NCBI GenBank assembly: GCA_964486045.1 | Contig: CAZALK010000005.1 | Location: 96,001-160,000 of the forward strand | DNA from: an uncultured archaeon | GTDB taxonomy: Archaea > Asgardarchaeota > Lokiarchaeia > Sigyniarchaeales > SOKP01 | DNA length: 64,000 nt | Direction: 5' to 3' | In this document: positions 3,347 through 41,217 of the stretch, piece after piece | How positions within the stretch are numbered: position 1 is the first letter of the stretch | Layout: each line of letters opens with the position of its first letter | Translations under genes and position numbers: made by a program | The notes under the pieces: generated by a model | Database searches by the model: none | Told to the model about the DNA's origin: nothing | What the model saw: only the letters and a program-made list of their open reading frames with translations

Positions 3347-3369
3347 TTGTGGGTTTTTAGATTTTTTTT

Positions 3370-4128
3370 CTAATTTAGGTTTCTTTCTTCTTCAATTATT
3401 TTCCCCTGATCAAATAAAATGACTTTGTCTGCAAGTGCTATTAAATCATCATCGTGGGTTGCAATTATGATTGTATTTTCACTATTTCTTAATTCTTTAA
3501 AAAGATCTCTAATAAAATGACTGGATTTTTTATCTAAATTCGCAGTAGGTTCATCAGCAAATATCACAGGGGGTTCATTTGCTAAGGCTCTAGCGATGGC
3601 TACTCTTTGCTGTTCACCTGCAGATAATTGGAAAGGTAAATGTTCTCTCCTATCACCAAGTCTCATCTTTTTTAATAATTTTGCTGCTCGATTTCTTTGT
3701 TCTTCAAATTTCATACCTGAGAGATTCATAGGAAACATCACATTTTCTTCAGCTGTTAGAGTGCTAATAAGATAATAATTTTGGAAGATGAATCCTGAAT
3801 TTATCAATCGAAATAAAGTTAAAGACTCTTGATCCATATCAGAAATTTTTACACCTTGGTTGTATATAATCCCAGAATTAGGAGAATCTAAACCCCCTAA
3901 TAGATTTAACAATGTTGTCTTTCCAGCACCGCTCGGACCTTTAATGGCAAGGCATTCACCATTCTTTACATTTAATGATACATTATCAACTGCTTTCACA
4001 ATAAAATCTCCAATTTCATAATGTTTTACGATTTCCTTACCTATAATAATCAGATCTTTCTCAATTAACTCCTTAGCCAAGTTTTTTTCACTTAAATTCT
4101 GGAGTTTTTCTATTGGATCCTCATCCAT
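3370..4128 (-). CDS. ABC transporter ATP-binding protein (LolD/MacB type)
   Basis: Walker A GPSGAGKT, signature LSAGEQQR, Walker B IFADEPT, H-loop ATHD. Confidence 0.95.
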   Translation of the reverse strand: MDEDPIEKLQNLSEKNLAKELIEKDLIIIGKEIVKHYEIGDFIVKAVDNVSLNVKNGECLAIKGPSGAGKTTLLNLLGGLDSPNSGIIYNQGVKISDMDQESLTLFRLINSGFIFQNYYLISTLTAEENVMFPMNLSGMKFEEQRNRAAKLLKKMRLGDRREHLPFQLSAGEQQRVAIARALANEPPVIFADEPTANLDKKSSHFIRDLFKELRNSENTIIIATHDDDLIALADKVILFDQGKIIEEERNLN

Positions 4129-4323
4129 TTCTCATTCCTCTCCAGTTTCAACTAATTTTAAGATCAGATTCGACCTTGCTAACATTTATATTCTTATGTT
4201 CACCAATTATACGAAGTTTACGCTGAACATAAATTTTGATGTAAAGAATTAATATTGTATTTTAATAATTTATGTTTGAATTTAAAATAAATTTAAATAT
4301 TAAAGTGTCATATTAATATTTCA

Positions 4324-4445
4324 GAGGGAAGATCGAGAAAATTATAAAATATCCCCTAATTTCCTAATTAAAATGGTAAGTAACTAAATTTAAAACAAAG
4401 TCTTAAACTTCCTTTTTAAGATTTTGATTTTTTCTCATCTCCCTC
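4324..4445. other. Possible structured intergenic element (long-range stem with inner hairpin)
   Basis: gagggaagatcgagaaaa (4324-4341) pairs with ttttctcatctccctc (4430-4445) with two bulges; inner hairpin aaagtcttaaa...tttaagatttt. Confidence 0.3.
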
Positions 4446-4565
4446 GTTCTCTTTTTTTAATTCAAGCCCTAAATAAGTGAATTTCACTAATTTTAAAAAA
4501 TAAAATTTAAAGGATTGTCTTAATTTATTACCAAATATAGTTATTAAGGAATACTTACATCGATA

Positions 4566-5213
4566 GTGAAGATTTTTATGGAATTTGAAAAATTAACTGA
4601 ACTGATCATTGAACTAGAGGTTGATGACATAGCTGATGCTGTAAAAGAAGCATTAGATGAAGGTAAAGAACCTTTTGATGTTATGGATGCTTTAACAAAA
4701 GGAATGGATGAAGTTGGTAAAAGATATGAAGAAAAAGAATACTATCTCACTGAACTAGTTTTAGCAGGAGAAACAATGAAAGAGGCATTTACAATTTTAA
4801 AACCTGCCTTAGCGGCTTCAGATACATCTACAGATAAAGTTAAAATAATTATAGGGACTGTTAAAGGAGATAATCACGATATTGGAAAAAATATTCTTGG
4901 TTCTCTCTTACTGAGCTCTGGATTCGAAATCTATGATTTAGGTATGGATGTGGATGAAAATACAATAGTAGAAACAGTTAAAGAAACAGGTGCCACTATT
5001 GTGGCGTTAAGTTCATTACTTACAATGACTGTAGAACATATAAAAGTTGTCCACGAGGCTTTAATAGCTGCAGGAATTCGAGATAAGGTAAAATTAATTG
5101 TGGGTGGTGCTCCATTAAATGAAGAACTCGCGAAAAAACTGGGAGCAGATGATTTTGCCGATGATGCAGTGGATGGAGTTAGACATATAAAAAAATTAGC
5201 GGGAAAAGGTTAA
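4566..5213 (+). CDS. Cobalamin-binding corrinoid protein (MtaC/MttC/MtbC-like); start may be ATG 4578
   Basis: B12 cap domain (GMDEVGKRYE...YYLTEL) plus DxHxxG motif GDNHDIGKN, SSLLT, IVGGAP. Confidence 0.92.
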   Translation: MKIFMEFEKLTELIIELEVDDIADAVKEALDEGKEPFDVMDALTKGMDEVGKRYEEKEYYLTELVLAGETMKEAFTILKPALAASDTSTDKVKIIIGTVKGDNHDIGKNILGSLLLSSGFEIYDLGMDVDENTIVETVKETGATIVALSSLLTMTVEHIKVVHEALIAAGIRDKVKLIVGGAPLNEELAKKLGADDFADDAVDGVRHIKKLAGKG

Positions 5214-5436
5214 GCTAATGAAATTTTAGTTTTTTATTGTATTTTAAAGACTTTCTTACTTTTTTTAATTAGAATTTTTGAGAGATTTATATTTTAAAAG
5301 ACCTTTATTTTAACTAGTTTATCTCAATTTTATTATTTTTCTTGAAATTGATTAAAATATAATGAGAACATTTATACTTTTTTATATTCCTTTATATCCC
5401 AAGGACCATAAAACAATATAGAGTTAACTTGAATAA

Positions 5437-5706
5437 ATGGAGGATAAAATTATGTCTGACGTAGAAAATAAGGAAATTGAATATGATGAACTCCTCGACA
5501 CAAGGGGCACGTATTGTCCACAACCCTTATTTGAAGTTAGAAATTTAAGTGAGAATCTTGAAATCGGACAGTGCTTTAAAGTCCTCGCAGATGATCCAGC
5601 AGCAGAAGAAGATCTTAAACGATGGGCCAAAAGAACAGAAACTAAATTGGTTGAATTTCAAAAAGATGGAGAAGATCTTATCTTTTACTTCAAAAAAGTT
5701 AAATAA
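5437..5706 (+). CDS. tusA: TusA/SirA-family sulfur carrier protein
   Basis: LDTRGTYCPQP motif and ADDP; stop overlaps the iscS start. Confidence 0.9.
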   Translation: MEDKIMSDVENKEIEYDELLDTRGTYCPQPLFEVRNLSENLEIGQCFKVLADDPAAEEDLKRWAKRTETKLVEFQKDGEDLIFYFKKVK

Positions 5707-6914
5707 TGGAGAAGAAAATTGTGAGTGTTTATTTAGATCATCAGGCAGCGAAACCGGTCGATGTTCGAGTCATTTCAGAGATGATTATTTATTTAAATCA
5801 AAAATTCGCCAACCCCTCATCTCTTCATTGTGAAGGAGATGATGCTACAGATGCTTTAGTAGAATTTCGTCGTAAAGTCGCTGAATTCATAAATGCCCCA
5901 GATCCAAGTTCAATTATATTCACATCAGGAGCAACTGAATCGAATAATCTTGCGTTAATCGGAGCAGCAATGAGATACAAAAAGAAAGGGAATCATATCA
6001 TAATTTCAGAGATAGAACATATTTCGATTTTAAATATTGCAAAGTATTTAGGACGACAAGGGTTTGAAGTTAGTAGAGTTCCTGTTGATCAGTATGGGAT
6101 TATTAGGCTTGATAAGCTTGAAAGATTAGTTACCGATAAGACCATTTTAATTTCCATCTCTACTGCGAGTAATGAAGTTGGATCCATTCAACCTATAAAG
6201 GAAATTAGCGATATTGCCATAAAAAATAAAGTCCTTTTTCATACTGATGCTGTAGCTAGTGAAAGTGTTATACCACTCGATGTTCAAGAAATTCCGGTTG
6301 ATCTGGTAACGTTATCATCAAATGAGATCTATGGACCGAGAGGTGTAGGTGCCTTATACTTGAAAAAGGGAATAAGAGTAAATCCGATAATAATTGGTGG
6401 AGGTCAGGAAAAAGGATTGAGATCTGGCTCCGAAAATATTCCAGGGATTGTAGGATTTGGAAAAGCTGCAGAAATAATGAAGGCTGAAATAAACGAGGAA
6501 TCTGTTAGACTAAGCTCTTTAAGAGATAAGTTAATTAATGGGATATTGGATACCATTCCAAAGTCTCATTTGAATGGTCATCCTGAAAAGAGACTACCTC
6601 ATAATGCACATTTTAGATTTGATTATATTGAGGGTGAATCTTTGATCCTCGGTCTGAAGGATGAAAAAATAGCCGCAGCCACAGGTTCGGCATGCTCATC
6701 AAAGACTTTAGAACCTTCCCATACTTTAATTTCTATGGGTTTACTGCATGAAGAAGCCCATGGGTCACTTGTGGTGTCTCTAGGAAGGGATACAAAAGAA
6801 GCACATATAGATAAATTAATTGAAAAACTACCGAAAATTGTTAAAAGGTTACGATTATTATCTCCCTTAACTCCTCCAGATTTAGTGAAAAATTACGACA
6901 AGGTGAATTATTAA
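5706..6914 (+). CDS. iscS: Cysteine desulfurase IscS/NifS family
   Basis: VYLDHQA, NPSSLH, FTSGATESNN, HTDAV, catalytic GSACSS; the usual PLP-lysine motif (S.HK.YGP) reads SSNEIYGP. Confidence 0.9.
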   Translation: MEKKIVSVYLDHQAAKPVDVRVISEMIIYLNQKFANPSSLHCEGDDATDALVEFRRKVAEFINAPDPSSIIFTSGATESNNLALIGAAMRYKKKGNHIIISEIEHISILNIAKYLGRQGFEVSRVPVDQYGIIRLDKLERLVTDKTILISISTASNEVGSIQPIKEISDIAIKNKVLFHTDAVASESVIPLDVQEIPVDLVTLSSNEIYGPRGVGALYLKKGIRVNPIIIGGGQEKGLRSGSENIPGIVGFGKAAEIMKAEINEESVRLSSLRDKLINGILDTIPKSHLNGHPEKRLPHNAHFRFDYIEGESLILGLKDEKIAAATGSACSSKTLEPSHTLISMGLLHEEAHGSLVVSLGRDTKEAHIDKLIEKLPKIVKRLRLLSPLTPPDLVKNYDKVNY

Positions 6915-6915
6915 A

Positions 6916-7716
6916 TTGAAATCAACACAATATACTGAAAAAGTTATGGATCATTTCCGAAATCCCCGAAATGTGGGTGTAATTGAGAGTCCTGACGGTT
7001 CGGGCGAAGTAGGTAATCCGGTTTGTGGAGATCTTATGTCTATTACTATTAAAGTTGGGAAAGATGAAGCTGGTGAAGAGATAATTGAAGATATTAAATT
7101 TCAAACATTTGGTTGCGGCTCAGCTATCGCAACTTCATCAATGGTAACAACAATGGCTAAAGGAATGAAAGTTGACGATGCTTATGAAATTACTCGGAAA
7201 GATGTTGCTGAAGAATTGGATGGTTTACCCCCAATAAAGATGCATTGTTCTAACTTAGCCGCTGATGCTCTAAAAGCTGCAATTGATAATTATAGAGGAA
7301 AGGCAGAAACATTTGTAGAAGTAGAATATAGAACTTGTGAAGCATCCGAACTTAAAATAATCCTGGGTATTGATGAATTTCTTGGTAAGGGAGTTTATAA
7401 GAAGAAAATTGAAGATTTCTCTGAGTTTAATAATAAAAGAGTATTGATAATTGACACGGGTGATGATTCTTTAGAGTATGCTCTAGAATTGACGAATCAT
7501 ACAGGCAGAGTCATTGTGGTTACGTCAGCTAAATCTGTTCGCGGTGCTGAAGACTTGCGGAGAAGAATAAAGAGGTCTGATGTAAAGATGATACATCAAT
7601 CTGATCTTTTAGAAGTTATAGGGACAGACGATGTTGAAAAAGTAAAAATACATGATTTTGATGAAGATGAGAATTACGAGCTCTTCATAGACGTAGTAAT
7701 AATTCTTGAGGAATAA
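6916..7716 (+). CDS. iscU: IscU/NifU Fe-S scaffold fused to a degenerate thioredoxin-reductase-like Rossmann domain
   Basis: YTEKVMDHFRNPRN, GNPVCGD, FGCGSAIA, KMHCS; the C-terminal ~125 aa aligns by eye with the NADPH domain of trxB at 34421. Confidence 0.88.
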   Translation: MKSTQYTEKVMDHFRNPRNVGVIESPDGSGEVGNPVCGDLMSITIKVGKDEAGEEIIEDIKFQTFGCGSAIATSSMVTTMAKGMKVDDAYEITRKDVAEELDGLPPIKMHCSNLAADALKAAIDNYRGKAETFVEVEYRTCEASELKIILGIDEFLGKGVYKKKIEDFSEFNNKRVLIIDTGDDSLEYALELTNHTGRVIVVTSAKSVRGAEDLRRRIKRSDVKMIHQSDLLEVIGTDDVEKVKIHDFDEDENYELFIDVVIILEE

Positions 7717-7746
7717 TTGAAAAACCTTTCATCAAATATCTCGGTA

Positions 7747-7795
7747 CTTTTTTTCTCTAATTTTTAAATTTAAAATCTTAAAATAGAGATTTCAT
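7747..7795 (+). repeat. 49-bp direct repeat, copy 1 (pairs with 8407-8455)
   Basis: ctttttttctctaatttttaaatttaaaatcttaaaatagagatttcat; 46/49 identical to copy 2. Confidence 0.9.
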
Positions 7796-7818
7796 GAGAG
7801 ATAAATTCAAATAGTTTG

Positions 7819-8205
7819 TTAATCCCCAGCTTTCAATGTTCCAGTGAATGTTTTAAACTGCTTAAAAATGGATAATTCTCCAAATATCTTCGCAAAAATA
7901 TTGACTGCGGATGCTGCCACGGGATGATCATTTTGACTTCTAGGAGTTTTGCCAAAGAAAATAACTATGCAATCACCTTGCATCCAATACCCAATATCTC
8001 CGACTTCACAGTCGATTTGAGTATTTTCAGCTGGGATGCTTAAACCTATTTTTTCATATAACGCCTCACCCCATCTTGCTAAATTTAAATCTAATGGGAG
8101 GGCATCAATTATTGCTTTCACTGTGTTTGGATTTTTAAAATTTAACAATTTTGCCTTTATCTGTCCGATTTTATCATTTTCAATTATTATTGAATTCATA
8201 ACCAA
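7819..8205 (-). CDS. Cyclophilin-like fold protein (DUF369/TM1367-like)
   Basis: NPNTVKAIIDALP, RWGEALY, GDIGYW...CIVIFFGKTP, PVAASAVN motifs. Confidence 0.8.
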   Translation of the reverse strand: MVMNSIIIENDKIGQIKAKLLNFKNPNTVKAIIDALPLDLNLARWGEALYEKIGLSIPAENTQIDCEVGDIGYWMQGDCIVIFFGKTPRSQNDHPVAASAVNIFAKIFGELSIFKQFKTFTGTLKAGD

Positions 8206-8406
8206 ATCAAAAAATTATTATTATTTAAAGATTAATATTTTTTCGTTGATTGTTTTTGGACCATATTCAAAGATATATATCAATCATAATTTACACTTAC
8301 AATTCATTATTTCTACATTTTAATCGTGATGATAAAAGTTTTTCATTCATATAGTAATAATTCTGGAGGAATCAGTATAATAACCTTTTTTTAATACAGA
8401 GAGACC

Positions 8407-8455
8407 CTTTTTTTCTCTCATTTTTAAATTTAAAATCTTAAAATGTAGATTTCAT
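8407..8455 (+). repeat. 49-bp direct repeat, copy 2 (pairs with 7747-7795)
   Basis: ctttttttctctcatttttaaatttaaaatcttaaaatgtagatttcat; exactly 660 bp from copy 1. Confidence 0.9.
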
Positions 8456-8499
8456 TTAATTAATCGTATAAAGTTGAAAGTACAATTTGAGAAATTAAG

Positions 8500-10179
8500 A
8501 TGACAAAGATTGTAATTATAGGTGGAGTTGCTGGAGGTGCCTCAGCTGCAGCACGCCTAAGACGGTTAAAAGAAAGTTTTGAAATAATACTACTTGAAAA
8601 AGGTCCCTATGTTAGTTTTGCTAACTGTGGGCTCCCCTATTATGTTGGTAATATTATTAAAGAACAAAAATCACTTGAACTGGTCTCACCTCGACGATTT
8701 AAGAGTTGGTTTAATATTAATGTGAAGATTAATAATGAAGCAATTTCTATAGAGAAAACTAAAAAACAAGTTCTTGTGAGAGATTTAGGTACTATGCATG
8801 AATATTCTCTTGATTACGATTCTCTTTTAATAGCTACTGGTTCAACTCCTGTTATTCCGCCATTTAAGGGTCTTGAGGATATTCCATTCCATATAATTTG
8901 GACAATTCCAGATGCTGTAAAATTAAAGGAGTTTGTTGAAAAAAATAAAATTGAAGAAGCTGTGATTATTGGTGGAGGATTCATAGGATTAGAAATGGCT
9001 GAAAACTTGGTGGAAAAAGGCATTAAGGTAAAAATTATTGAAATGCTTGATCAAGTTATGCCTTCCATTGATAAAGAAATGGCTCAACTAATTCATAAAG
9101 AATTAAAATTAAACGGAGTTGCCCTAATACTCGAAGATCCCGTAGAATCATTTGCGAGAACTGAAGACGACAAATATACTGTAAAAACAAAAGGTGGAAG
9201 GGAAATTGAAACAGAATTAATTGTAATGGCTGTTGGTATTAAACCAACAAGCAATTTAGCGCTAGATTCGGGATTGGAGTTAAATTCAAAAGGGTATATC
9301 ATAGTAAATGAGTATATGCGAACTTCAGATCCAAATATTTACGCTGTAGGAGATGCTGTTCAAGTAAACCATTATCAAACAAAAGAACCAATCTCAATTG
9401 CATTAGCAGGGCCTGCAAATAAGCAAGGTAGAATTGCTGCGGATAATATCGCTGGAAGGGAAGTTAAATATAAGGGAATTTTAGGTGCATTTGTAATAAA
9501 AGTATTTGATAGTTCTGTTGCTACTGTAGGCCTTACAGAAAAACAATTAAAAAACACAGATATCAATTATGAAAAAGTGTATGTTCATCCAAATAATCAT
9601 GCGGGATATTATCCTGGAGCTACTCCTATTGCTTTAAAGCTCTTGTTTGAAATCCCAAATGGTAGAGTGTTAGGTGCTCAAGCTGTGGGTGGGTCTGGAA
9701 CGGAAAAAAGAATTGATGTTATTTCTGCTGTGATAAAATTTAGAGGGACTGTGTTCGATTTAGAAGAATTAGAATTAACCTATGCTCCCCCCTATAGTTC
9801 AGCAAAAGATCCTGTCAATATGGCTGGATTTGTAGCGTCGAATTTTTTACGGGGAGATATCAAAATTAAACAATGGCATGATATTGATGAATTTAGAAAG
9901 ATCAAAGGTTTTATTTTAGATGTAAGGACCAACAAAGAGTATGAAGCGGGGAAAATTGAAGACTCTGTCAATATTCCGATCCATGAATTGAGAAATCGAT
10001 TAAGCGAGATCCCAAAAGGAAAGCCCGTTATGGTCTATTGTGAAGTTGGGTATAGGAGTTATATCTCAACTCGCATATTATTACAACATGGATTTGAGGA
10101 AGTATTTGAACTTACTGGAGGATTCAAACTCTATGAAACTGCCACTACTAAGACAGAAGATTTTGTCTTTAATTTATAA
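8500..10179 (+). CDS. CoA-disulfide reductase-rhodanese fusion (CoADR-RHD/Npsr-like persulfide reductase)
   Basis: GGVAGGAS, SFANCGLPY, GGGFIGLE, YAPPYS, C-terminal rhodanese domain with YCEVGYRS. Confidence 0.93.
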   Translation: MTKIVIIGGVAGGASAAARLRRLKESFEIILLEKGPYVSFANCGLPYYVGNIIKEQKSLELVSPRRFKSWFNINVKINNEAISIEKTKKQVLVRDLGTMHEYSLDYDSLLIATGSTPVIPPFKGLEDIPFHIIWTIPDAVKLKEFVEKNKIEEAVIIGGGFIGLEMAENLVEKGIKVKIIEMLDQVMPSIDKEMAQLIHKELKLNGVALILEDPVESFARTEDDKYTVKTKGGREIETELIVMAVGIKPTSNLALDSGLELNSKGYIIVNEYMRTSDPNIYAVGDAVQVNHYQTKEPISIALAGPANKQGRIAADNIAGREVKYKGILGAFVIKVFDSSVATVGLTEKQLKNTDINYEKVYVHPNNHAGYYPGATPIALKLLFEIPNGRVLGAQAVGGSGTEKRIDVISAVIKFRGTVFDLEELELTYAPPYSSAKDPVNMAGFVASNFLRGDIKIKQWHDIDEFRKIKGFILDVRTNKEYEAGKIEDSVNIPIHELRNRLSEIPKGKPVMVYCEVGYRSYISTRILLQHGFEEVFELTGGFKLYETATTKTEDFVFNL

Positions 10180-32945: not shown

Positions 32946-33653
32946 ATGGTGAATTTAATAATGTTTTCTGAAAATGAACTTAACAATATTAAAAGAGAAA
33001 TGGCTAAATTAAAAAATTCTGTTGTTTTGAAGTTATTTACAGATTTCAAAACTCAAGCAGATGGGAGTAAACTTAGAAAATGTATGGCTTGCGAGGGTAC
33101 ATATGAGTTATTAAAAACATTAAGAGAGTTATCTAATGGGAAATTAATTATAAAAGAGTTGTCAACAGAAGAGAATGCTGAAGAAGCTGAAAAATATAAT
33201 ATTTCAAGGATTCCAGCGATATTGTTTGTTGATGAAAATGACCAAGAAATTATTCGATACTTAGCACATCCAACAGGATCTGAATTTGTACCCTTTCTAA
33301 ATAGTATCCAATATTTTTCAGGAGTAAGACCATATTATGCTGATCAAATCATTACTCATCTAAAAAAAATAAAGAAGTCAAAAATGAAGATCTTTATAAC
33401 CCCCACATGCCCATATTGTCCAATGACAGTACCTGTTCTAACACTCTTTGCTATAGTTTCTAAAGGAAAAATATCAGCAGAAGTTATTGATGTTAATTTG
33501 AATCCTGATCTAGGAATGAAATATCAAGTTCAAGGAGTACCTCATACGGTCGTGAATGAAACTGATAATATAATCGGTCAGTTCACTCCTCAAGATTTGT
33601 TAGACAAATTAGTTGGATCAAAAGAAAGAGATTTTGGAGGGATGTATGCATAA
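32946..33653 (+). CDS. Protein disulfide oxidoreductase (PDO/AhpF-NTD-like), paralog 1
   Basis: Two thioredoxin folds, CMAC and CPYC. Confidence 0.85.
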   Translation: MVNLIMFSENELNNIKREMAKLKNSVVLKLFTDFKTQADGSKLRKCMACEGTYELLKTLRELSNGKLIIKELSTEENAEEAEKYNISRIPAILFVDENDQEIIRYLAHPTGSEFVPFLNSIQYFSGVRPYYADQIITHLKKIKKSKMKIFITPTCPYCPMTVPVLTLFAIVSKGKISAEVIDVNLNPDLGMKYQVQGVPHTVVNETDNIIGQFTPQDLLDKLVGSKERDFGGMYA

Positions 33654-34336
33654 TGTCTTCAGATGATAGATATAAGGAAATTATAAAGACAGAAATGGCT
33701 AAATTAACCAGACCTGTTAATTTAAAGGTTTTTACTTGTAAGGAAAAACAACCAGAGGGAAGCCAAATACGAGAATGCATGGATTGTGGGCAATTTATGG
33801 CTTTACTGAAGGTTTATGAGGAAAATTCAAATGGGATGCTCACAATAGAAGAATTATGTATTGATGACAACCCCGAATTCGCGAAACAATATGATATATC
33901 TCGAGTTCCTACAATTCTATTCATTGACAATGAAGGGAGAGAAGTTATTCGCTATTTAGCATCACCCAAAGCTGGTGAGATTCAACCATTCATTCAAGCG
34001 GTATTTGCTTTCGCAGGAGCACCGAATTATTATGAATCAACAATACGAAAGAACTTAGATCGCATCAAACCATCTACAATAAAGGTAATGATAACAGAAA
34101 CTTGCCCTTACTGTCCACAAGTTGCTACAGTAGTTAATAATTTTGCAATAGCATCGAAAGGAAAAATTAGATCAATTATAATTGATATAACGGCAAATCC
34201 CGACATTGGTCAGTACTATGACGCAGCAGGAGTCCCTTACACAATCATTAATGACCAAAAAACGATTGTAGGTATGGTTGGCGCACCTGAGATATTAAAA
34301 GCATTGATTGGGAGTGATATTCGAGTTCAATATTAA
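33653..34336 (+). CDS. Protein disulfide oxidoreductase, paralog 2
   Basis: CMDC and CPYC; TAATG stop/start overlap with paralog 1. Confidence 0.85.
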   Translation: MSSDDRYKEIIKTEMAKLTRPVNLKVFTCKEKQPEGSQIRECMDCGQFMALLKVYEENSNGMLTIEELCIDDNPEFAKQYDISRVPTILFIDNEGREVIRYLASPKAGEIQPFIQAVFAFAGAPNYYESTIRKNLDRIKPSTIKVMITETCPYCPQVATVVNNFAIASKGKIRSIIIDITANPDIGQYYDAAGVPYTIINDQKTIVGMVGAPEILKALIGSDIRVQY

Positions 34337-34420
34337 TTCTTTTTTAACTTGTTTAACTCCATTTTTTTCTATGAAGAAAATAATTTATGTATGTATTACT
34401 TATAGAAAGGAGAGGAAAAG

Positions 34421-35365
34421 ATGTTTAACTTTGATATGGAAAGTATTGATTTTGAAAAGACTTATGACCTTATTGTTTTAGGGGGTGGCCCCACAGCAAT
34501 AGGATGTGCTATATATGCCGCAAGGTTTGCAATGGATGTACTTGTTATTGGCAAAATTTTCGGCGGTTTAATAGCAACAACACACATAGTTGAGAATTAT
34601 CCTGCTATAACCTCTGTCAGTGGTCAAGGGTTAATGGAGATGTTCAGAGACCATATGAATTCACTCAAAATACCGTACATATCAGATGAAATAAAAAGTA
34701 TTGAAAGAGTGGACGATCATTTTGAGCTTAATTCATTTTTTCAAAAATTTAAAGCATATTCAATTTGTATTGCCACCGGTTCAGAAAGGAAAAAACTTGG
34801 AGTTCCGGGGGAGGAAGATTATGCTGGAAGGGGTGTGTCTTATTGTGCAACATGTGATGGACCGTTTTATAAAGATAAAGTTGTTTGTGTAATTGGAGGG
34901 AGTGATTCTGCTGCAAAAGAGGCTTTATTCTTATCTCAGAATGTTAAAAAGGTTTATATTATCTACCGTGGAGAAGAAATACGAGCTGAACCGATAAACA
35001 AGCAAAGAGTGTATGATAATGATAAAATTGAAATCATTTATGAAACAAACATTCTTGAAATTAAAGGAGATAATACTGTAAAGTCTGTGATTTTTGATAA
35101 CGGTAAAGAATTTGAGGTGAATGGAGTCTTCATAGAGATAGGGTCGATCCCCAATTCCGAATTAGCAAAAAGAATAGGAGTAAAGACAAATGAGAAAGGA
35201 GAGATCATAATTAATCGTAAATCCGAAACAAACATCCCGGGAATCTTTGCTGCGGGAGATGTAGCGGATGCACCATTTAAACAAGCGATTACAGGTGTAT
35301 CTGAAGGTGTAATTGCTGCTTATTCTGCTTTTGATCATGTTAAAGAAATGAATATTGAATATTAG
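34421..35365 (+). CDS. trxB: Thioredoxin reductase
   Basis: GGGP, VENYP, GRGVSYCATCDG, GGSDSA, FAAGD. Confidence 0.93.
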   Translation: MFNFDMESIDFEKTYDLIVLGGGPTAIGCAIYAARFAMDVLVIGKIFGGLIATTHIVENYPAITSVSGQGLMEMFRDHMNSLKIPYISDEIKSIERVDDHFELNSFFQKFKAYSICIATGSERKKLGVPGEEDYAGRGVSYCATCDGPFYKDKVVCVIGGSDSAAKEALFLSQNVKKVYIIYRGEEIRAEPINKQRVYDNDKIEIIYETNILEIKGDNTVKSVIFDNGKEFEVNGVFIEIGSIPNSELAKRIGVKTNEKGEIIINRKSETNIPGIFAAGDVADAPFKQAITGVSEGVIAAYSAFDHVKEMNIEY

Positions 35366-35403: not shown

Positions 35404-35784
35404 TTAATCTATTTTTATATCTATGCTATGGTATTCGGGTTCTTTAAAGGGTACTTCAATCTTTAAAAGCCCTTGATGATAAACTGCTTTTGCCTCTTCT
35501 GGTTTTACTGGACAACATATAGCGTAGGAACCGATATAGATTGTGTCATCGGTTTCTCCTTTGATGAAAAAACTTTCATCATGCATCTTGAGTTTAATTG
35601 AATCCTTCTCTGCTCCAGGTAGTTGTATTTCGATTTTATAAGTCTCACTGTCATCATCAGCCCAAGAACAAATTTCAGGAGACATTAAAAACTTATCTTC
35701 TTTAGATTCTTCTTTAATTTCTTCTATCGCTTCTTCTTTAATTTCTTCTTTCGTTTCTTCTTTGATTTCTTGCATTCTTTTCAC
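35404..35784 (-). CDS. Small heat-shock protein (Hsp20) with EEIKEE N-terminal repeats
   Basis: IQLPGAEKDSI, AKAVYHQGLLKIEVP, C-terminal IxI. Confidence 0.85.
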   Translation of the reverse strand: MKRMQEIKEETKEEIKEEAIEEIKEESKEDKFLMSPEICSWADDDSETYKIEIQLPGAEKDSIKLKMHDESFFIKGETDDTIYIGSYAICCPVKPEEAKAVYHQGLLKIEVPFKEPEYHSIDIKID

Positions 35785-35955: not shown

Positions 35956-36873
35956 TTATTGGGGATTTAGTAAATGTGATTCTTTTAATAGTATTTTCAA
36001 AATCTTGTCCCAATATTCTTTAACTTCCCATTCTTGTTTTTTTTTTATTTTTGCAGAGATTTCTTTTAAAATTTCCCTAATTGCGAGTGAACTAAAGTAT
36101 GAGATATTTGGGGCGATTACTGATAACATATATTGTTTTTCTCCAAATCTTTCACGTTCATCTGGAAAAGAATCAAAGAACAGATAACCCTTTTTCTTAA
36201 TATTTTCTATATTTAATAAAATACTCTCAGCTTGGGTTATCTTGTCATGCCCATAAATAGAAGTTGCTGCGTGAAAAAGCTGTTTCCCAATTGTTCTTGT
36301 TGAAAAATGACATAATTCATCAGAAGGATAACTATCCTTCAATCCAGGACCGGTAATATCGTCCCAGCATACGTAGAGTAAACAGAAGAAGGACATTTCA
36401 TCTTTAGAAATAGGTTGTTGTAATTCTGTATTGGCAGAAGTGAGGAGCTGCTTAATTTTATCATCAATTAAATCGGATTTTCTACTACGGGCAATTTTTC
36501 CAGATATTGAGGCAATAAGATCCTCCTTGTTAAATGGTTTCGTAATATAATCATCTACTCCTAACATCTTCCCCAATCGAATATCTTCAGGTGTTGATTT
36601 AGCCGTTAGGAATAAAAATGGAACACGATTCCATTGAGAATTGGAGGATACAACAGAAAAAAATTCATAGCCACTCATGTTTGGCATCATAATATCACTT
36701 ATAATAACTTCAGGTATTGTTTCTAGGGTAGTGAGGATATTGAGTGCTTCATCCCCACTATTAGCAGTTACTACTTCATAATTCATTTTTTCGAGCATTA
36801 TTTTGAGATTGAAGAGGATGTCTAAATTATCATCTACAACCAGTAATAATGGTTTACCGTTTGAATTTGACAT
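35956..36873 (-). CDS. Response regulator: receiver domain fused to a longin/uDENN-like domain (ATG 36873; track 36897)
   Basis: VVDD, ISDIMMP, FLTAK, YITKPF; C-terminal LLYVCWDDITGP...YP and FPDERERFGEKQY. Confidence 0.88.
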   Translation of the reverse strand: MSNSNGKPLLLVVDDNLDILFNLKIMLEKMNYEVVTANSGDEALNILTTLETIPEVIISDIMMPNMSGYEFFSVVSSNSQWNRVPFLFLTAKSTPEDIRLGKMLGVDDYITKPFNKEDLIASISGKIARSRKSDLIDDKIKQLLTSANTELQQPISKDEMSFFCLLYVCWDDITGPGLKDSYPSDELCHFSTRTIGKQLFHAATSIYGHDKITQAESILLNIENIKKKGYLFFDSFPDERERFGEKQYMLSVIAPNISYFSSLAIREILKEISAKIKKKQEWEVKEYWDKILKILLKESHLLNPQ

Positions 36874-37006
36874 AGTTTTGATTACGTCTAAACACAATTC
36901 ACAAAGATCTTCAATATTTTATTGAATCGATCTTATATAAATGAGTTTTTCTATTGTTGATTCCATTTTTAATAATCCGAATATAATTTAAAGTTTGTAC
37001 TAGAGG

Positions 37007-39568
37007 CTATGAAAGTTGAGGTAGAAATAGATTAATTGTTGTTCCTTTTTCTAATTCACTTTCAATGTATATTTTACCTTGATGGGCCTCTATTAAATCT
37101 TTAGCAATAGCTAATCCTAATCCAGTTCCAGTTATTTTATCTACATTACTACCGCGGAAAAATCGTTCAAAAATGTGAGGAATATCTTCTTTTGAGATCC
37201 CACGACCATGATCCTTGAATTGAAAGAGAACTCCCTTATTCCCATCCAAATTATATTCACCTTGATAATTATCTATAGCATTAATTTCTATTTTTGAATT
37301 TTCATTTGAGTATTTTAAAGCATTTTCTATTAGAATTCGAAAAATTTGATCAATCCTTTTTGAATCACCTCGTAGATGAAGATGGTCATCCACCTCGATT
37401 TCAAAATCTATATTCTTTTCCTTGCCTATAGGTTCCATAAGATATAAGATTTCGTTGATTATTTCTAAAGGATTATATTCCTCTCGTTCTATTACTAGCC
37501 TATTTTCATCAATTCTTGAAATTAAAAGTATATCTTCTGCTAATTTATTTAGCAATTGGATGTTTCTTGAGATCCCCTCCATCAATTTTTCTTCTAACTC
37601 CTTATTGAGTGAACTTTTATTCTTAGTAAGATATTCGATTGACATCAACAAAACGGTAATGGGTGTCCTTAATTCATGTGAAACTGTAGAAATTAATTGG
37701 GATATCTTCTGTTCCGCTTTTTTACGTTCTGTAATATCTAATCCGTAAACATTTACATAATCCATATTTTCAACTGGAGTAACAGCTAGAGTATAAGTTC
37801 TGCTATTTAACCTTACTTCGAGTTCCTCGTTTTTCTTAGTAGTTAGAGCAGTATATATTGGTTTTTCTAAAACCCTCGGAATGAGATTATCTTCACTAAT
37901 GTTAAATAATTTCTTACCAATTTTATTAGAATAGATTACTTTTTGGTTATTTACTCTCAATACAGGATTTGGATTTTCAGAAGGAAATTTTGATAAATTA
38001 AGTATCTCCTCTTCTGCTTTTTTACGTTCTATAAAAGTAGCAATCATTTCAGAAATTCCGTTAATTAAAAACCGCTCTTCCTTAAAAAAAGGTCCCTCCT
38101 CAAATTCAAGCCTTTCCTCTAAATATAAAACTTCTATAGCTCCAGTAGTTTTTCCATATTCTCTAATATTAGCTTTTAGTACCCATTTAGTTTCTCTAAA
38201 ATTTGCTGTTGTTAGCTCTTGACCTTTGTAAAAAATTCTCGCACAAGTAATTTCAGGATATTGCCAAGCTGGTGGAAGATATCGTAATGTTTCTTCTAGA
38301 ACTTGCTCTATCGAAATATCTTTTTTTTCAATCAATTTGGAAACATTATAGAAACACGTAAGTTCTTTTACTCTTTCTTTTAAATCGTATTCTCTCTTCT
38401 TTATCTCTTCTTCTGCTTTCTTCAATTCTGTAATTTCTGTTGCGACACTAAGTAAGGAGGGAAATTTTGATTCGTAGTCTTCTATCGGCTGTTCTACTAT
38501 CCAATAAGTTTTTCTACCGACTGGTATGTCGAATGTACGCTGATAAGATCTACTCCTTCCCTCTCTAATTAGCTCTTGGTTACTTTTCATGTATTCATCA
38601 GCTAACTTCTGTGGTAGAACGTCATGAAGTGTTTTTCCTATGAAATCCTCGGGTATTCCACCCAACTCACTAGCAGCTTTTTCATTTACTAATAAATATA
38701 TCCCATTTTCGTCTAGCATTGTGATGCCTGCCCCAGAATGATCAATAATATTTCTTAATTCCAATTCACTTCTCTTGATTTGTCTTAACAATAAATCAAA
38801 TGGTTTTTCGATTCCAATTTGAATTACAGATTTGTACAAAAGGTAGAATGCAATTATTTTAAAGATATGGCCAACTAAATTTGAAAATCCGTAAACATTA
38901 ATATAAAATGTGAAGGCCAATTCTGCGATCATTATTGAGACAATTGAACTAACAATCAGGACTAGAACTTTTTTATCAAATTCTTTCCGATTTCTAATAA
39001 TTAACAAAAGAGAAACAAGCAATACAAGATCAATTACATATTCACTGATGATTTTAAAAGGAGTTAGACCATAGTTTTCAATATAACAGATGGGGAAGAG
39101 ATTATTAAAGATCAATGTTAGTAAGATAATAGTAATAAGAAAATAGGTTACGAGAAGATAAAAGGGATTGATAGTCCTTTTTAATAGAAGCAAAGCAGTT
39201 AAGATAGATCCTGCTTGAAGGTAACGAGCAGCTATCCATAAAGATGTTGGAAGATTTGCATCAAACTCAAGAAAAATCTGCATACCCGTATAAGAAAACG
39301 TATGAATTAAATCAAAAATACCAATAAAAAGAGATGAAACCCCAAGAATTAGAAAAAAGGAGTTTTTCATATATCTCCGAGAGTTCCAACCAACGAAAAA
39401 CACACCTCCTGCGATAATTATGCTGAATATTTCTGCAATGCTATGAAATAATAAATATCTATAAAGACTTGTAATATATACAAGTAGCAACCCCAAAAAT
39501 AAAATTAAATATTCTATTATTTCCGGATTTACATTAAGAGGGAAAGTTCGATTATTATTTTCCGACAT
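37007..39568 (-). CDS. MASE3-PAS sensor histidine kinase
   Basis: Multi-TM N-terminus with YLLFHSIAEIFS (MASE3-like), PAS domains, H-box VSHELRTP, ENALKY, DHGRG, GTGLGL. Confidence 0.92.
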   Translation of the reverse strand: MSENNNRTFPLNVNPEIIEYLILFLGLLLVYITSLYRYLLFHSIAEIFSIIIAGGVFFVGWNSRRYMKNSFFLILGVSSLFIGIFDLIHTFSYTGMQIFLEFDANLPTSLWIAARYLQAGSILTALLLLKRTINPFYLLVTYFLITIILLTLIFNNLFPICYIENYGLTPFKIISEYVIDLVLLVSLLLIIRNRKEFDKKVLVLIVSSIVSIMIAELAFTFYINVYGFSNLVGHIFKIIAFYLLYKSVIQIGIEKPFDLLLRQIKRSELELRNIIDHSGAGITMLDENGIYLLVNEKAASELGGIPEDFIGKTLHDVLPQKLADEYMKSNQELIREGRSRSYQRTFDIPVGRKTYWIVEQPIEDYESKFPSLLSVATEITELKKAEEEIKKREYDLKERVKELTCFYNVSKLIEKKDISIEQVLEETLRYLPPAWQYPEITCARIFYKGQELTTANFRETKWVLKANIREYGKTTGAIEVLYLEERLEFEEGPFFKEERFLINGISEMIATFIERKKAEEEILNLSKFPSENPNPVLRVNNQKVIYSNKIGKKLFNISEDNLIPRVLEKPIYTALTTKKNEELEVRLNSRTYTLAVTPVENMDYVNVYGLDITERKKAEQKISQLISTVSHELRTPITVLLMSIEYLTKNKSSLNKELEEKLMEGISRNIQLLNKLAEDILLISRIDENRLVIEREEYNPLEIINEILYLMEPIGKEKNIDFEIEVDDHLHLRGDSKRIDQIFRILIENALKYSNENSKIEINAIDNYQGEYNLDGNKGVLFQFKDHGRGISKEDIPHIFERFFRGSNVDKITGTGLGLAIAKDLIEAHQGKIYIESELEKGTTINLFLPQLS

Positions 39569-39621
39569 TTTGCTATATAAAGCTCATCTATAAATTAATA
39601 ATTTTTCCCATCGAAAATCGT

Positions 39622-40161
39622 TTAAGTGATTGTAGTCTTCTCAAAAATTGCATATATTGAGGTTTTAAATAATGAATATGTAAAATTCGGTGGTATTTTC
39701 TCTTTTATTTTTTTTATAAATTTATCAATGATTATCTCATTTAATTCTTGATTAAATTTTAGGTCTGGATCATATTTATGGAGAAAAATTGAAAAATCAA
39801 TATTCTTACGTTTTTGTATTGATTTTATTACCTTTTCCAAGTACTCAATTGCATGAACATACCTTTTTACATCTTGAATATCAATAACATATATTATTTT
39901 ACTAGTGTCATCAAAGAATTTGGATGTTTGGTTAATATAATCCCCACGGTATGCTTTTTGTCCACTAAGATCCCAAATGACATACTTCAAATTCAAAGCT
40001 TCAAAATTTTCTATATCTGGCTCTCTAGTGGGAACTATTGAATTAAAAATAGATAGGTTCTTAATTCCTTGTAAACATTTTGATATTGATGTTTTTCCAC
40101 TATTAGCTAATCCAATCATTAAGATTTTTTTTGATTTTTCAGAAGTTTTTGAAATAGTCAT
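39622..40161 (-). CDS. Rag/Gtr-like (Arf/Rag clade) small GTPase, G domain only
   Basis: G1 GLANSGKTS, G2 PT, G3 WDLSGQ, G4 HKYD, G5 TSIY; HKxD and TSI are Rag-type. Confidence 0.88.
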   Translation of the reverse strand: MTISKTSEKSKKILMIGLANSGKTSISKCLQGIKNLSIFNSIVPTREPDIENFEALNLKYVIWDLSGQKAYRGDYINQTSKFFDDTSKIIYVIDIQDVKRYVHAIEYLEKVIKSIQKRKNIDFSIFLHKYDPDLKFNQELNEIIIDKFIKKIKEKIPPNFTYSLFKTSIYAIFEKTTIT

Positions 40162-40216
40162 AGTTAATCAAAATAAGGCGTTATTTACATAGAGTTTATA
40201 ATTTTCTTTTAAGATC

Positions 40217-40552
40217 TTAAGATAAAGTATCATAGATGTCTTGATCTCTTATATGCTTAAATTTTTTTTTATTAATATCCAGTGCAATTGTATTTATTGT
40301 CTTTATGAGGTTAAGAATTTCATTATTTTCAATTTTGTAGTATTTGATATTATCTCTTTTCTCAAAGTCGATGAAATTATTCTCTATTAGCATATTTAGA
40401 TGTTTAGAAATTGTTGATTGAGATCTGTCCAAAGCTAACTTAATTTCTAAGGCAGTTTTTTCACTGTTCTGTAAAAGACTTATTATATCTAATCTTGTTG
40501 GATCACCAAGTACCTTCAAGAACTCAACAGTGTATTTTCGTAATTCGCTCAT
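40217..40552 (-). CDS. ArsR/SmtB-family transcription regulator
   Basis: LKVLGDPTRLDII, SQSTISKHL, wing with YYKI. Confidence 0.9.
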   Translation of the reverse strand: MSELRKYTVEFLKVLGDPTRLDIISLLQNSEKTALEIKLALDRSQSTISKHLNMLIENNFIDFEKRDNIKYYKIENNEILNLIKTINTIALDINKKKFKHIRDQDIYDTLS

Positions 40553-40746: not shown

Positions 40747-41217
40747 ATGATTAGTGAAAAAATTGGAATAGATTCTATCGATTGTCAGATAATGGATTTA
40801 ATTCAAAAGTCTCCAAATCTCACACATACTGAAATTGCTACACATGTAAACCGTAGTCAACCTACAGTTGGTATGCGGATTAGGAAACTTGAGAAATTAG
40901 GTGTTTTAAAGTACCAGGCAGGAATTAATATTAGGATTGCAAATCTTTGTTTTGCTAGAGTAGAACTTCAGACTAAAAATCCAAAAAAGGCAATAGAGAT
41001 TGTTAACCGCTGTCCTAATATGATTAACGCGCTTAAATTGAGCGGAAGTACAAATCTAAGCATTTTATTAGCTGGTACAAATTATAAACTCCTCGATGAT
41101 ATTGTTAATGTATATTTTAGAGATGATCCTGATGTTATACACGTCCATATTGATATAATTGAAGATGTTGTCAATGATTTCGTTTTACCGATTGATTATA
41201 ATCTTGTAGCTGGATAA
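40747..41217 (+). CDS. Lrp/AsnC-family regulator, paralog 1
   Basis: HTH LTHTEIA...SQPTVGMRIRKL; RAM domain with CPNMINALKLSG. Confidence 0.9.
   Translation: MISEKIGIDSIDCQIMDLIQKSPNLTHTEIATHVNRSQPTVGMRIRKLEKLGVLKYQAGINIRIANLCFARVELQTKNPKKAIEIVNRCPNMINALKLSGSTNLSILLAGTNYKLLDDIVNVYFRDDPDVIHVHIDIIEDVVNDFVLPIDYNLVAG

Follow-up and report, generated by a model that had tools for sequence, protein, structure and literature searches.

A response regulator with a predicted longin output domain is encoded next to a Rag-like GTPase in Asgard archaea and may act as its phosphorylation-gated GTPase-activating protein

The 64,000-nucleotide stretch of DNA analysed here, in the following called the window (positions 96,001 to 160,000 of contig CAZALK010000005.1, assembly GCA_964486045.1), stems from an uncultured Asgard archaeon of the Sigyniarchaeales within the Lokiarchaeia and contains on its minus strand a cassette of four genes, in which a two-component system is encoded together with a small GTPase. 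The cassette opens with a gene for an ArsR/SmtB-family winged-helix regulator (40217..40552; 111 residues without cysteine; Pfam HTH_5 9e-11, NCBIfam HTH_metalloreg 2.2e-17). It is followed by the gene for a small GTPase with a Rag-like G domain and no roadblock tail (39622..40161; 179 residues; Pfam Arf 1.2e-19, Gtr1_RagA 1.5e-19), by the gene for a membrane sensor histidine kinase of 853 residues (37007..39568) composed of MASE3, PAS, a middle region without family, HisKA and HATPase_c, and finally by a response regulator gene (35956..36897), which codes for a receiver, a long helix with linker and a longin domain (313 residues from a TTG start, probably 305 from an ATG at 36873). According to the listing of open reading frames (ORFs), the intergenic gaps are 55, 53 and 109 nt from ArsR towards the regulator, the last one increasing to 133 nt with the ATG of M9 as start of the regulator. 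The kinase was recognized with Pfam scores of 6.6e-80 for MASE3, 2.3e-9 for PAS_4, 4.3e-12 for HisKA and 3.6e-26 for HATPase_c as well as with the NCBIfam model MASE3_PAS_HK (5.2e-98). A first-pass annotation of the window had described four co-directional genes with short gaps, and this arrangement was recovered on the minus strand; likewise, its domain calls for ArsR, GTPase, MASE3-PAS kinase and receiver were upheld by Pfam and NCBIfam, and the motifs it had singled out are present in the translations (GLANSGKT, WDLSGQ, HKYD and TSIY in the GTPase; D68, CWDDITGP...YP and FPDERERFGEKQY in the regulator).

Residue numbers of the regulator refer to the 313-residue track starting with TTG; in P0004, the 305-residue database twin that starts at M9, they are 8 lower, and D68, W178 and R250 are there D60, W170 and R242. 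The TTG start (window 36873-36897) adds the eight residues LCLDVIKT, which are common to no homologue, and the ATG at 36873 is likely the start of the gene as judged from these comparisons. The receiver domain (residues 19-131, 36505..36843; Pfam Response_reg 7.5e-24) reached 84.5 bits compared to a curated cut-off of 30.2. Its phospho-acceptor D68 is encoded by the codon 36694-36696, and among 30 orthologues D22, D23, D68 and K120 are invariant and T98 nearly so. The closest receiver profiles in NCBIfam are of the OmpR/PhoB type, i.e. of receivers that dimerise when phosphorylated. In the model of the full-length regulator, helix alpha5 continues as a long helix (116-147) and then passes into a disordered linker. 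A HisKA-type kinase gene lies directly upstream of the regulator gene here, and a MASE3 kinase is found between GTPase and regulator in 27 of the loci surveyed below. The regulator is a member of a sizeable family, for which an exhaustive HMMER search gave 157 representatives at 50% clustering. The longin region (the C-terminal 164 residues) has 271 close homologues with 57-79% identity, nearly all of them about 300 residues long and fused to a receiver, which are labelled by NCBI as Prometh-, Loki-, Thor- and Hodarchaeota; in the family as a whole the lengths are mostly about 295-305 residues.

No Pfam or NCBIfam family was found for residues 150-313 of the regulator, and the comparison of the family profile with the sequences of the PDB yielded nothing relevant, the only match being a chance one to a molybdate-binding protein at E = 1. 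The fold of this part is nevertheless well predicted. The AlphaFold2 model of the longin domain (residues 171-310, 35968..36387) reached a predicted local distance difference test (pLDDT) of 91.7 and a predicted template modelling score (pTM) of 0.86, with the element order beta-beta-alpha-beta-beta-beta-alpha-alpha (in model positions, strands at 23-30, 34-41, 75-81, 86-96 and 104-113, helices at 51-66, 118-136 and 143-161). In VIA-align, the highest Z values were obtained with the Lst4 longin (12.6 over 128 residues at a root-mean-square deviation (rmsd) of 3.1) and the Loki longin 8yqg (12.1), followed by C9orf72-SMCR8 (11.6), FLCN complexes (11.6 and 11.0) and GATOR1 (9.9). Foldseek ranked GATOR1 chains first (3.2e-5) and then the SEA complex, FLCN-FNIP2, a Lokiarchaeal Roadblock-Longin protein and Lst4. 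The first match in the ESM Atlas was an SMCR8-like cluster with a template modelling (TM) score of 0.71, and the same list includes, besides a cluster of 341-residue Asgard proteins in which a GTPase is fused to a longin, Heimdall proteins that match Pfam Folliculin and Asgard proteins that match Pfam NPR2. Two other folds were considered and rejected. MglB and other roadblock proteins gave Z values of 7.6-7.9 compared to up to 12.6 for longins, and the order of strands and helices is longin-like, whereas the LOV, PAS and GAF folds aligned in Foldseek with TM about 0.3 and high rmsd. Collectively, the modelled structure supports the assignment of the output domain to the longins of the FLCN/FNIP/SMCR8/NPRL2 kind, and in this respect the first-pass annotation, which had read a longin instead of a helix-turn-helix domain in the output part, is confirmed. 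The chain stops after the longin and has neither a DENN nor an NPRL2-type C-terminal domain.

Two elements of this domain are of particular interest with regard to its possible activity. The motif W178-D179-x3-G183-P184 (36346..36366) is placed by the AlphaFold2 model in the beta1-beta2 turn, and R250 in the beta4-beta5 loop. The codon of R250 had been located at 36148-36150, where AGA is indeed read. W178, G183, P184 and R250 are all invariant in the 30 orthologues. Among 104 diverse representatives of the family, W is kept in 99, G in 98, P in 96 and the equivalent of R250 in 76; it is also present in 53 of the 61 surveyed receiver-longin genes. Such conservation of R250 among homologues had been named by the first-pass annotation as decisive for its reading. 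The GP motif has been reported to be specific for GAP-type longins (GAP, GTPase-activating protein), where it lies beside the arginine finger, and to be absent from the longins of DENND and TRAPP (PMC12290439). The spacing found here is that of W33-D34...G38-P39 in C9orf72, as quoted in the same study. Conservation and modelling make R250 a candidate arginine finger, which may be the counterpart of R164 of FLCN, R78 of NPRL2 or R147 of SMCR8.

The GTPase carries all motifs expected from an active G domain: G1 GLANSGKT, P44-T45 in switch I, G3 WDLSGQ with Q68, G4 HKYD and G5 TSIY. Among 46 relatives, G1, the Pro-Thr of switch I, DxxGQ, HKxD and the Thr of G5 are invariant (including H128, K129, D131 and T167), and because the G motifs and the catalytic Gln are kept throughout, the protein appears to be a live enzyme. 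In Pfam, Arf (70.9 bits) and Gtr1_RagA (70.8 bits, cut-off 22) are tied. Among proteins of solved structure, 8yl2_A (3.6e-25) and 8zla_A (1.5e-19), two Asgard GTP-binding proteins with C-terminal tails, are nearest in sequence; Arl3/Arf come next at about 1e-11, aligned with the first 130 residues, and then RagC at 1e-9 over the full length. The combination of HKxD in G4 with TSIY in G5 is one that we take to be typical of Rag proteins. The ORF ends at 179 residues, the orthologues measure 178-190 residues, and the C-terminal roadblock dimerisation domain is absent, in line with the earlier description of a tail-less protein. Since this domain defines the Rags, the GTPase is, on the basis of its sequence, best called Rag-like and not Rag.

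The linkage of regulator and GTPase was surveyed in 201 Asgard genomes, in which the surroundings of all 61 receiver-longin genes were annotated with local profiles (L numbers denote surveyed loci, G numbers genomes and f numbers sampled families, with G000 being the genome of the window). The longin family is present in 51 of the 201 genomes, mainly in f1 (34/40) and f22 (10/10), besides f5 (2/21), f14 (2/7) and f18 (1/1). Close orthologues of the GTPase were found only in the window's own family and in one genome of a sister family. From the 53 receiver-longin copies that bear the Arg, 40 have a GTPase gene within 4.8 kb, two have none despite complete flanks and 11 are cut by a contig end; the corresponding numbers for the eight Arg-less copies are one, six and one, and the single linked Arg-less copy sits in the same cassette as an Arg-bearing one. 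As background, the window's genome contains 91 GTPase-like ORFs, and a random gene has a GTPase within 4.8 kb with p = 0.16 and within 300 nt with p = 0.036. The order Lrp (divergent), ArsR, GTPase, MASE3 kinase and receiver-longin is found again in three NCBI assemblies, which carry the labels Hod-, Prometh- and Thorarchaeota.

The form of the linkage varies. The GTPase gene may directly adjoin the regulator gene with no kinase in cis (L012, L013, L014), it may lie downstream (L011, L045, L052, L055), or the two genes may be convergent (L016, L044). Moreover, the linked GTPase is a 462-residue protein of the Gtr1/RagA type in f22 and a Ras-family GTPase in one genome of f1. Pairwise distances of longins and GTPases are correlated (r 0.71, Mantel 0/999). 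In five genomes that carry two cassettes, the longin and the GTPase of a given cassette are each most closely related to their counterparts in cassettes of that type elsewhere, which means that GTPase and longin were duplicated together, as pairs. The linkage of GTPase, kinase and receiver-longin across Asgard genomes, on which the first-pass annotation had made its proposal depend, is thus kept across genera and recurs in paralogous cassettes.

The complex was predicted from the alignment of the GTPase together with the longin alignment in duplicate, with GTP and Mg as ligands. The score used here has a pass mark, which 58 of 80 solved complexes reached, as did 2 of 110 mismatched pairs. The cassette pair scored 0.77 in the median run (0.80, 0.77 and 0.77) and the best of three controls 0.00, a pass that would point to likeness with longin GAP complexes and not to binding as such. 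The runs agreed in at least 95% of the contacts, with a partner pLDDT of at least 83. On the GTPase, the modelled interface comprises residues 19-20 of the P-loop, 43-47 of switch I, and 66 and 68-71 of switch II including Q68; on the first longin copy, it comprises residues 178-185 (WDDITGPG), helix alpha1 and R250-F251. In this arrangement the WD-x3-GP loop contacts Q68 and residues 19-20 of the P-loop, while the GP loop and R250 of the second copy touch the interswitch side of the GTPase. The geometry matches the one described for ARF1 on C9orf72-SMCR8, in which SMCR8 provides the Arg and W33-D34 of C9orf72 holds the GTPase. As to the earlier question of whether R250 enters the nucleotide pocket in a complex prediction, R250 and the GP loop are placed at this pocket in the model.

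How could these parts work together? The reading that we regard as the most likely one, at about even odds, is that the regulator is a longin GAP, gated by phosphorylation and acting on the neighbouring Rag-like GTPase, its output being the control of this GTPase and not DNA binding. None of those refuting conditions named by the first-pass annotation that can be examined by computation came true. The MASE3-PAS kinase would sense a membrane or cytoplasmic cue and phosphorylate D68 of the regulator; the OmpR/PhoB-type receiver, once phosphorylated, would dimerise and join two longin domains; and the longin dimer would cup the GTP-bound form of the Rag-like GTPase, whose gene lies two positions upstream. 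The WD-x3-GP loop and R250 of one protomer would face P-loop, switch I and Gln68 of the GTPase, this protomer working as an arginine-finger GAP like SMCR8, FLCN or NPRL2; the other protomer would hold the GTPase, as C9orf72, FNIP or NPRL3 do, with the result that the GTPase is turned off. An Arg-bearing GAP other than the longin was not seen in the cassette. We infer in this scheme the physical binding, the GAP activity, the direction in which phosphorylation acts, the homodimer and everything downstream of the GTPase. Because an OmpR/PhoB-type receiver is combined with a long helix running into a disordered linker, it is plausible, though purely an inference, that dimerisation drives the assembly of a two-longin platform.

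Several observations weigh against such a phosphorylation-gated GAP. The Arg is absent from 28 of the 104 representatives. In one cassette with two receiver-longin genes (L013, G186:C300; 4473-5387 and 9067-9957), the copy at 4473-5387, which adjoins the GTPase gene, carries a Gln where the Arg would be and reads GA instead of GP, so that an Arg-less copy stands right beside a GTPase. None of the 104 family members matched Pfam Folliculin PF11704 or NPR2 PF06218 at E up to 1, nor any other consistent family. The model of the full-length regulator gave no confident arrangement of receiver and longin (pTM 0.48), which leaves the gating step purely hypothetical. The complex model may reproduce the already solved longin GAP complexes 7MGE, 8DHB and 7T3B, and its run used our own alignments as well as ligands, in which it differed from the calibration. 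The surveyed genomes are related to each other, and raw counts of linked genes overstate the number of independent cases, a weakness from which the congruence of the paralogues is free. Finally, many longin and roadblock domains are platforms for guanine nucleotide exchange factors (GEFs) or scaffolds and not GAPs.

The last point leads to a reading that we find rather unlikely, in which the receiver-longin does bind the neighbouring GTPase, yet as an exchange factor, as a scaffold specific for one nucleotide state or as a holder similar to guanine nucleotide dissociation inhibitors (GDI-like), with the Arg serving binding or structure. TRAPP, Mon1-Ccz1 and DENN are typical GEFs on longin/roadblock platforms, DENND1-Rab35 GEF complexes are among the fold matches, and a GEF role has been proposed for an FLCN-like module of Asgard archaea (Liu et al., bioRxiv 10.1101/2020.10.19.343400). 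Furthermore, linkage and co-duplication speak for a partnership and are silent on the direction of catalysis. However, the GP motif is the one reported as GAP-type-specific and missing in the DENND and TRAPP longins (PMC12290439), the presence of the Arg tracks the linkage to a GTPase, and the model built with GTP has the Arg and GP loops at the P-loop and the catalytic Gln, all of which is more easily reconciled with a GAP. The signal might also flow in the opposite direction. The GTPase would then be the upstream switch and the receiver-longin its effector or a feedback element, with the GTP-bound GTPase modulating the phosphotransfer or phosphatase reaction of the two-component pair. In a study on Myxococcus (PMC13408092), RomRX is reported to bind MglA-GTP as an effector and not as a GEF; the regulator lacks any other recognisable output, and cassette variants without a kinase in cis do exist (L012, L013, L014). 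An effector would, however, have no need of the conserved GAP-type pair of Arg and GP, and the modelled interface covers the catalytic site itself, which makes the reversed order quite improbable in our view.

It could furthermore be argued that the genes are held together merely by co-regulation or co-inheritance and that the longin acts on another target or a small ligand with no contact to the GTPase. Small GTPases are abundant in Asgard genomes, and the 91 GTPase-like ORFs in the genome studied here give the chance of 0.16 within 4.8 kb mentioned above; LOV/PAS and GAF sensor folds turn up among the weaker Foldseek matches, and the two Arg-bearing copies with complete flanks but no GTPase nearby (L034, L054) would fit as well. 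Against this, 40 of the 42 assessable Arg-bearing copies are linked compared to 16% expected, and the link outlasts rearrangements (adjoining or convergent genes, with or without a kinase in between), spans three GTPase types and involves co-duplicated pairs, while the LOV/GAF rows with TM about 0.3 face longin Z values up to 12.6. We therefore judge a mere neighbourhood to be very unlikely and return to the phosphorylation-gated longin GAP as the preferred explanation.

The surroundings of the cassette and related loci in other genomes provided some additional observations. Divergent from ArsR lies a gene for an Lrp/AsnC regulator (40747..41217, plus strand), a conserved neighbour that adjoins ArsR in 29 of the 31 loci having an ArsR-GTPase pair, paralogous cassettes included. 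ArsR itself is directly upstream of the GTPase in every ArsR-carrying cassette of the window's family (31 loci), and it is free of cysteine in 25 of 32 cassettes. Because it has no cysteine, the cassette ArsR is probably not one of the classical sensors for metals or thiols; either ArsR or Lrp/AsnC could be an input or an output of the GTPase switch. Behind the cassette follow genes for HSP20, a thioredoxin reductase and two thioredoxin-fold proteins (35404-35784 and 33653-35365), neighbours that several loci of the same genus and of close relatives also have (e.g. L003, L004, L018, L019, L031, L038). They were considered as parts of the module and discounted, as they are not kept in the other surveyed genera, where other genes take their place; probably they reflect local synteny. 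In the kinase, about 200 residues between PAS and HisKA (residues about 400-610) matched no Pfam family at the thresholds used; the same stretch is strongly variable in length among relatives (kinases of 638-896 residues), which makes the sensory middle the variable element. Among the listed sequencing runs matching the locus there was none of RNA, the matches being marine-sediment DNA runs from one study.

The genome of the window encodes a second receiver-longin of 297 residues (G000:C8:185426-186319; L002 1495-2388; L061), in which WD-x3-GP is kept and the loop has no Arg (ESGIESFM); there is no GTPase gene within 6.5 kb, and this Arg-less, unlinked type of paralogue also occurs in three other genomes of the genus (L058-L060). 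A second cassette of the same genome (L015, G000:C6:89000-101000; ORFs 3313-3672, 3702-4223, 4431-5189 and 5247-9374) consists of ArsR, the closest paralogue of the GTPase (44% identity) and then a giant gene, in which a longin-like part (FDDWEGP, IRGG), an Arf-like GTPase, a second longin-like part (RWDEIIG) and six PAS domains follow one another. It is divided into ORFs of 252 and 1375 residues by a single in-frame TAA at 5187-5189, between G3 and G4 (NKID) of the GTPase, and may be a pseudogene, the product of a misassembly or in fact two genes. An intact version would be a one-component form of the system that dispenses with receiver and kinase. L006 (G130:C11, 3824-8350), which belongs to another Asgard family, contains on one strand a receiver-longin gene followed by the gene for a 462-residue Gtr1/RagA-type GTPase with long N- and C-terminal extensions and, further on, genes for a 507-residue kinase and a Ras-family GTPase, i.e. 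two GTPase types in one gene string.

A second longin gene within the cassette was seen in two surveyed cassettes only, as a complete receiver-longin in L013 and as a 99-residue longin fragment in L014. The copy at 9067-9957 of L013 keeps Arg and GP, and by analogy the two L013 copies resemble the catalytic and non-catalytic subunits of eukaryotic heterodimers. From here it might be speculated that the cassette is a complete, minimal forerunner of the nutrient signalling by Rag GAPs, with an ancestral homodimer, ArsR as effector and an amino-acid input through Lrp/AsnC. The homodimeric receiver-longin would then be the ancestor of the FLCN-FNIP, NPRL2-NPRL3 and SMCR8-C9orf72 heterodimers, a cassette that combines an Arg/GP copy with an Arg-less one would be an intermediate, and the signal would run from the kinase via the longin GAP and the GTPase to a transcription factor, the cysteine-free ArsR. 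Taken as a whole, this far-reaching scenario seems quite improbable to us.

With regard to what is new, the claim of the first-pass annotation has to be lowered, because fusions of longins with two-component domains (Liu et al.) and Asgard longins with GP and Arg (PMC12290439) are already in print. In the literature searched, no paper was found that joins Asgard small GTPases, a histidine kinase, a response regulator and a GAP, nor did we find there the fixed and co-duplicated pairing of a receiver-longin with a tail-less Rag-like GTPase, the presence of the C9orf72-type WD-x3-GP motif and a candidate arginine finger in one chain, the association of the Arg with GTPase linkage, or a controlled model of the complex. 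The published problem is that Asgard archaea possess many GTPases and many longin/roadblock proteins that cannot be assigned to each other; in MK-D1, for example, GTPase genes are generally outside operons with longin or roadblock genes, which hinders the matching of partners (PMC10933270). The cassette fixes one such pair through conserved gene order, co-duplication, the link between Arg and adjacency and the controlled complex model, and it supplies with the histidine kinase also the input for this pair. Since its soluble components are of small size and amenable to expression in E. coli, an open question from the literature becomes testable. If the GAP activity were true, the arginine-finger mechanism of longins would be older than the eukaryotes and would be driven in Asgard archaea by a phosphorelay of bacterial type. 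Even with a negative GAP assay, the family would still be a widespread output domain of response regulators that no sequence database recognises.

Compared to known systems, the closest structural counterparts are the eukaryotic longin GAPs FLCN-FNIP2 acting on RagC/D, GATOR1 with NPRL2-NPRL3 acting on RagA/B, and C9orf72-SMCR8 acting on Arf. Their longin fold is shared by the regulator, for which they are the best matches in structure. The regulator likewise has a GP motif in the turn between beta1 and beta2, in the WD-x3-GP form of C9orf72, and one of its surface loops carries a conserved Arg. The partners of the eukaryotic proteins are Rag/Arf-like GTPases with a catalytic Gln, as is the GTPase that was modelled here on the longin pair. 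In contrast to them, the cassette regulator has no DENN or NPRL2-specific C-terminal domain, and it combines its longin with a receiver and comes with a histidine kinase; instead of a heterodimer there is one gene, and a homodimer, seen here as a model, would have to fill both roles. The GTPase differs from the eukaryotic Rags by the lack of the roadblock dimerisation domain, and there is no lysosome or mTOR context.

Among prokaryotes, the conservon of Streptomyces, with the kinase CvnA, the roadblock/MglB-like CvnB, CvnC and the small GTPase CvnD, and the MglA-MglB-RomR system of Myxococcus come closest. Like the cassette, the conservon is a four-gene module that combines a histidine kinase, a protein of the roadblock/longin superfamily and a small GTPase, and in Myxococcus response regulators communicate with a small GTPase (PMC4316618). 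However, a response regulator is missing from the conservon, the roadblock protein there stands alone and has no arginine finger, and the GTPase belongs to the MglA family, whereas the cassette encodes a receiver-longin fusion with conserved Arg and a Rag-like GTPase, and MglB matches the longin model at Z 7.6-7.8 only. The Rag-like GTPases of Asgard archaea with roadblock/longin tails (8yl2, 8zla; Tran et al., PMC10933270) share with the cassette GTPase HKxD and the TSIY-type G4/G5 motifs, yet the latter is a bare G domain of 179 residues and its longin is encoded separately, under putative phosphorelay control. Regarding the longins themselves, NPRL2-like longins fused to two-component domains have been described in Asgard archaea, whose growth control was proposed to consist of two-component systems with eukaryote-like regulators at the centre (Liu et al., bioRxiv 10.1101/2020.10.19.343400), and Asgard longins of the FLCN/SMCR8 type with GP motif and arginine finger have been reported as well (PMC12290439, Traffic 2025). 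The cassette regulator is thus a member of a published class, a GAP-type Asgard longin with a two-component domain, GP and Arg. The latter study asks whether ArfR or Rag GTPases are the partners of such longins (PMC12290439). Whereas the published papers on Asgard longins name no partner GTPase, the partner of the regulator described here is fixed by a conserved and co-duplicated cassette.

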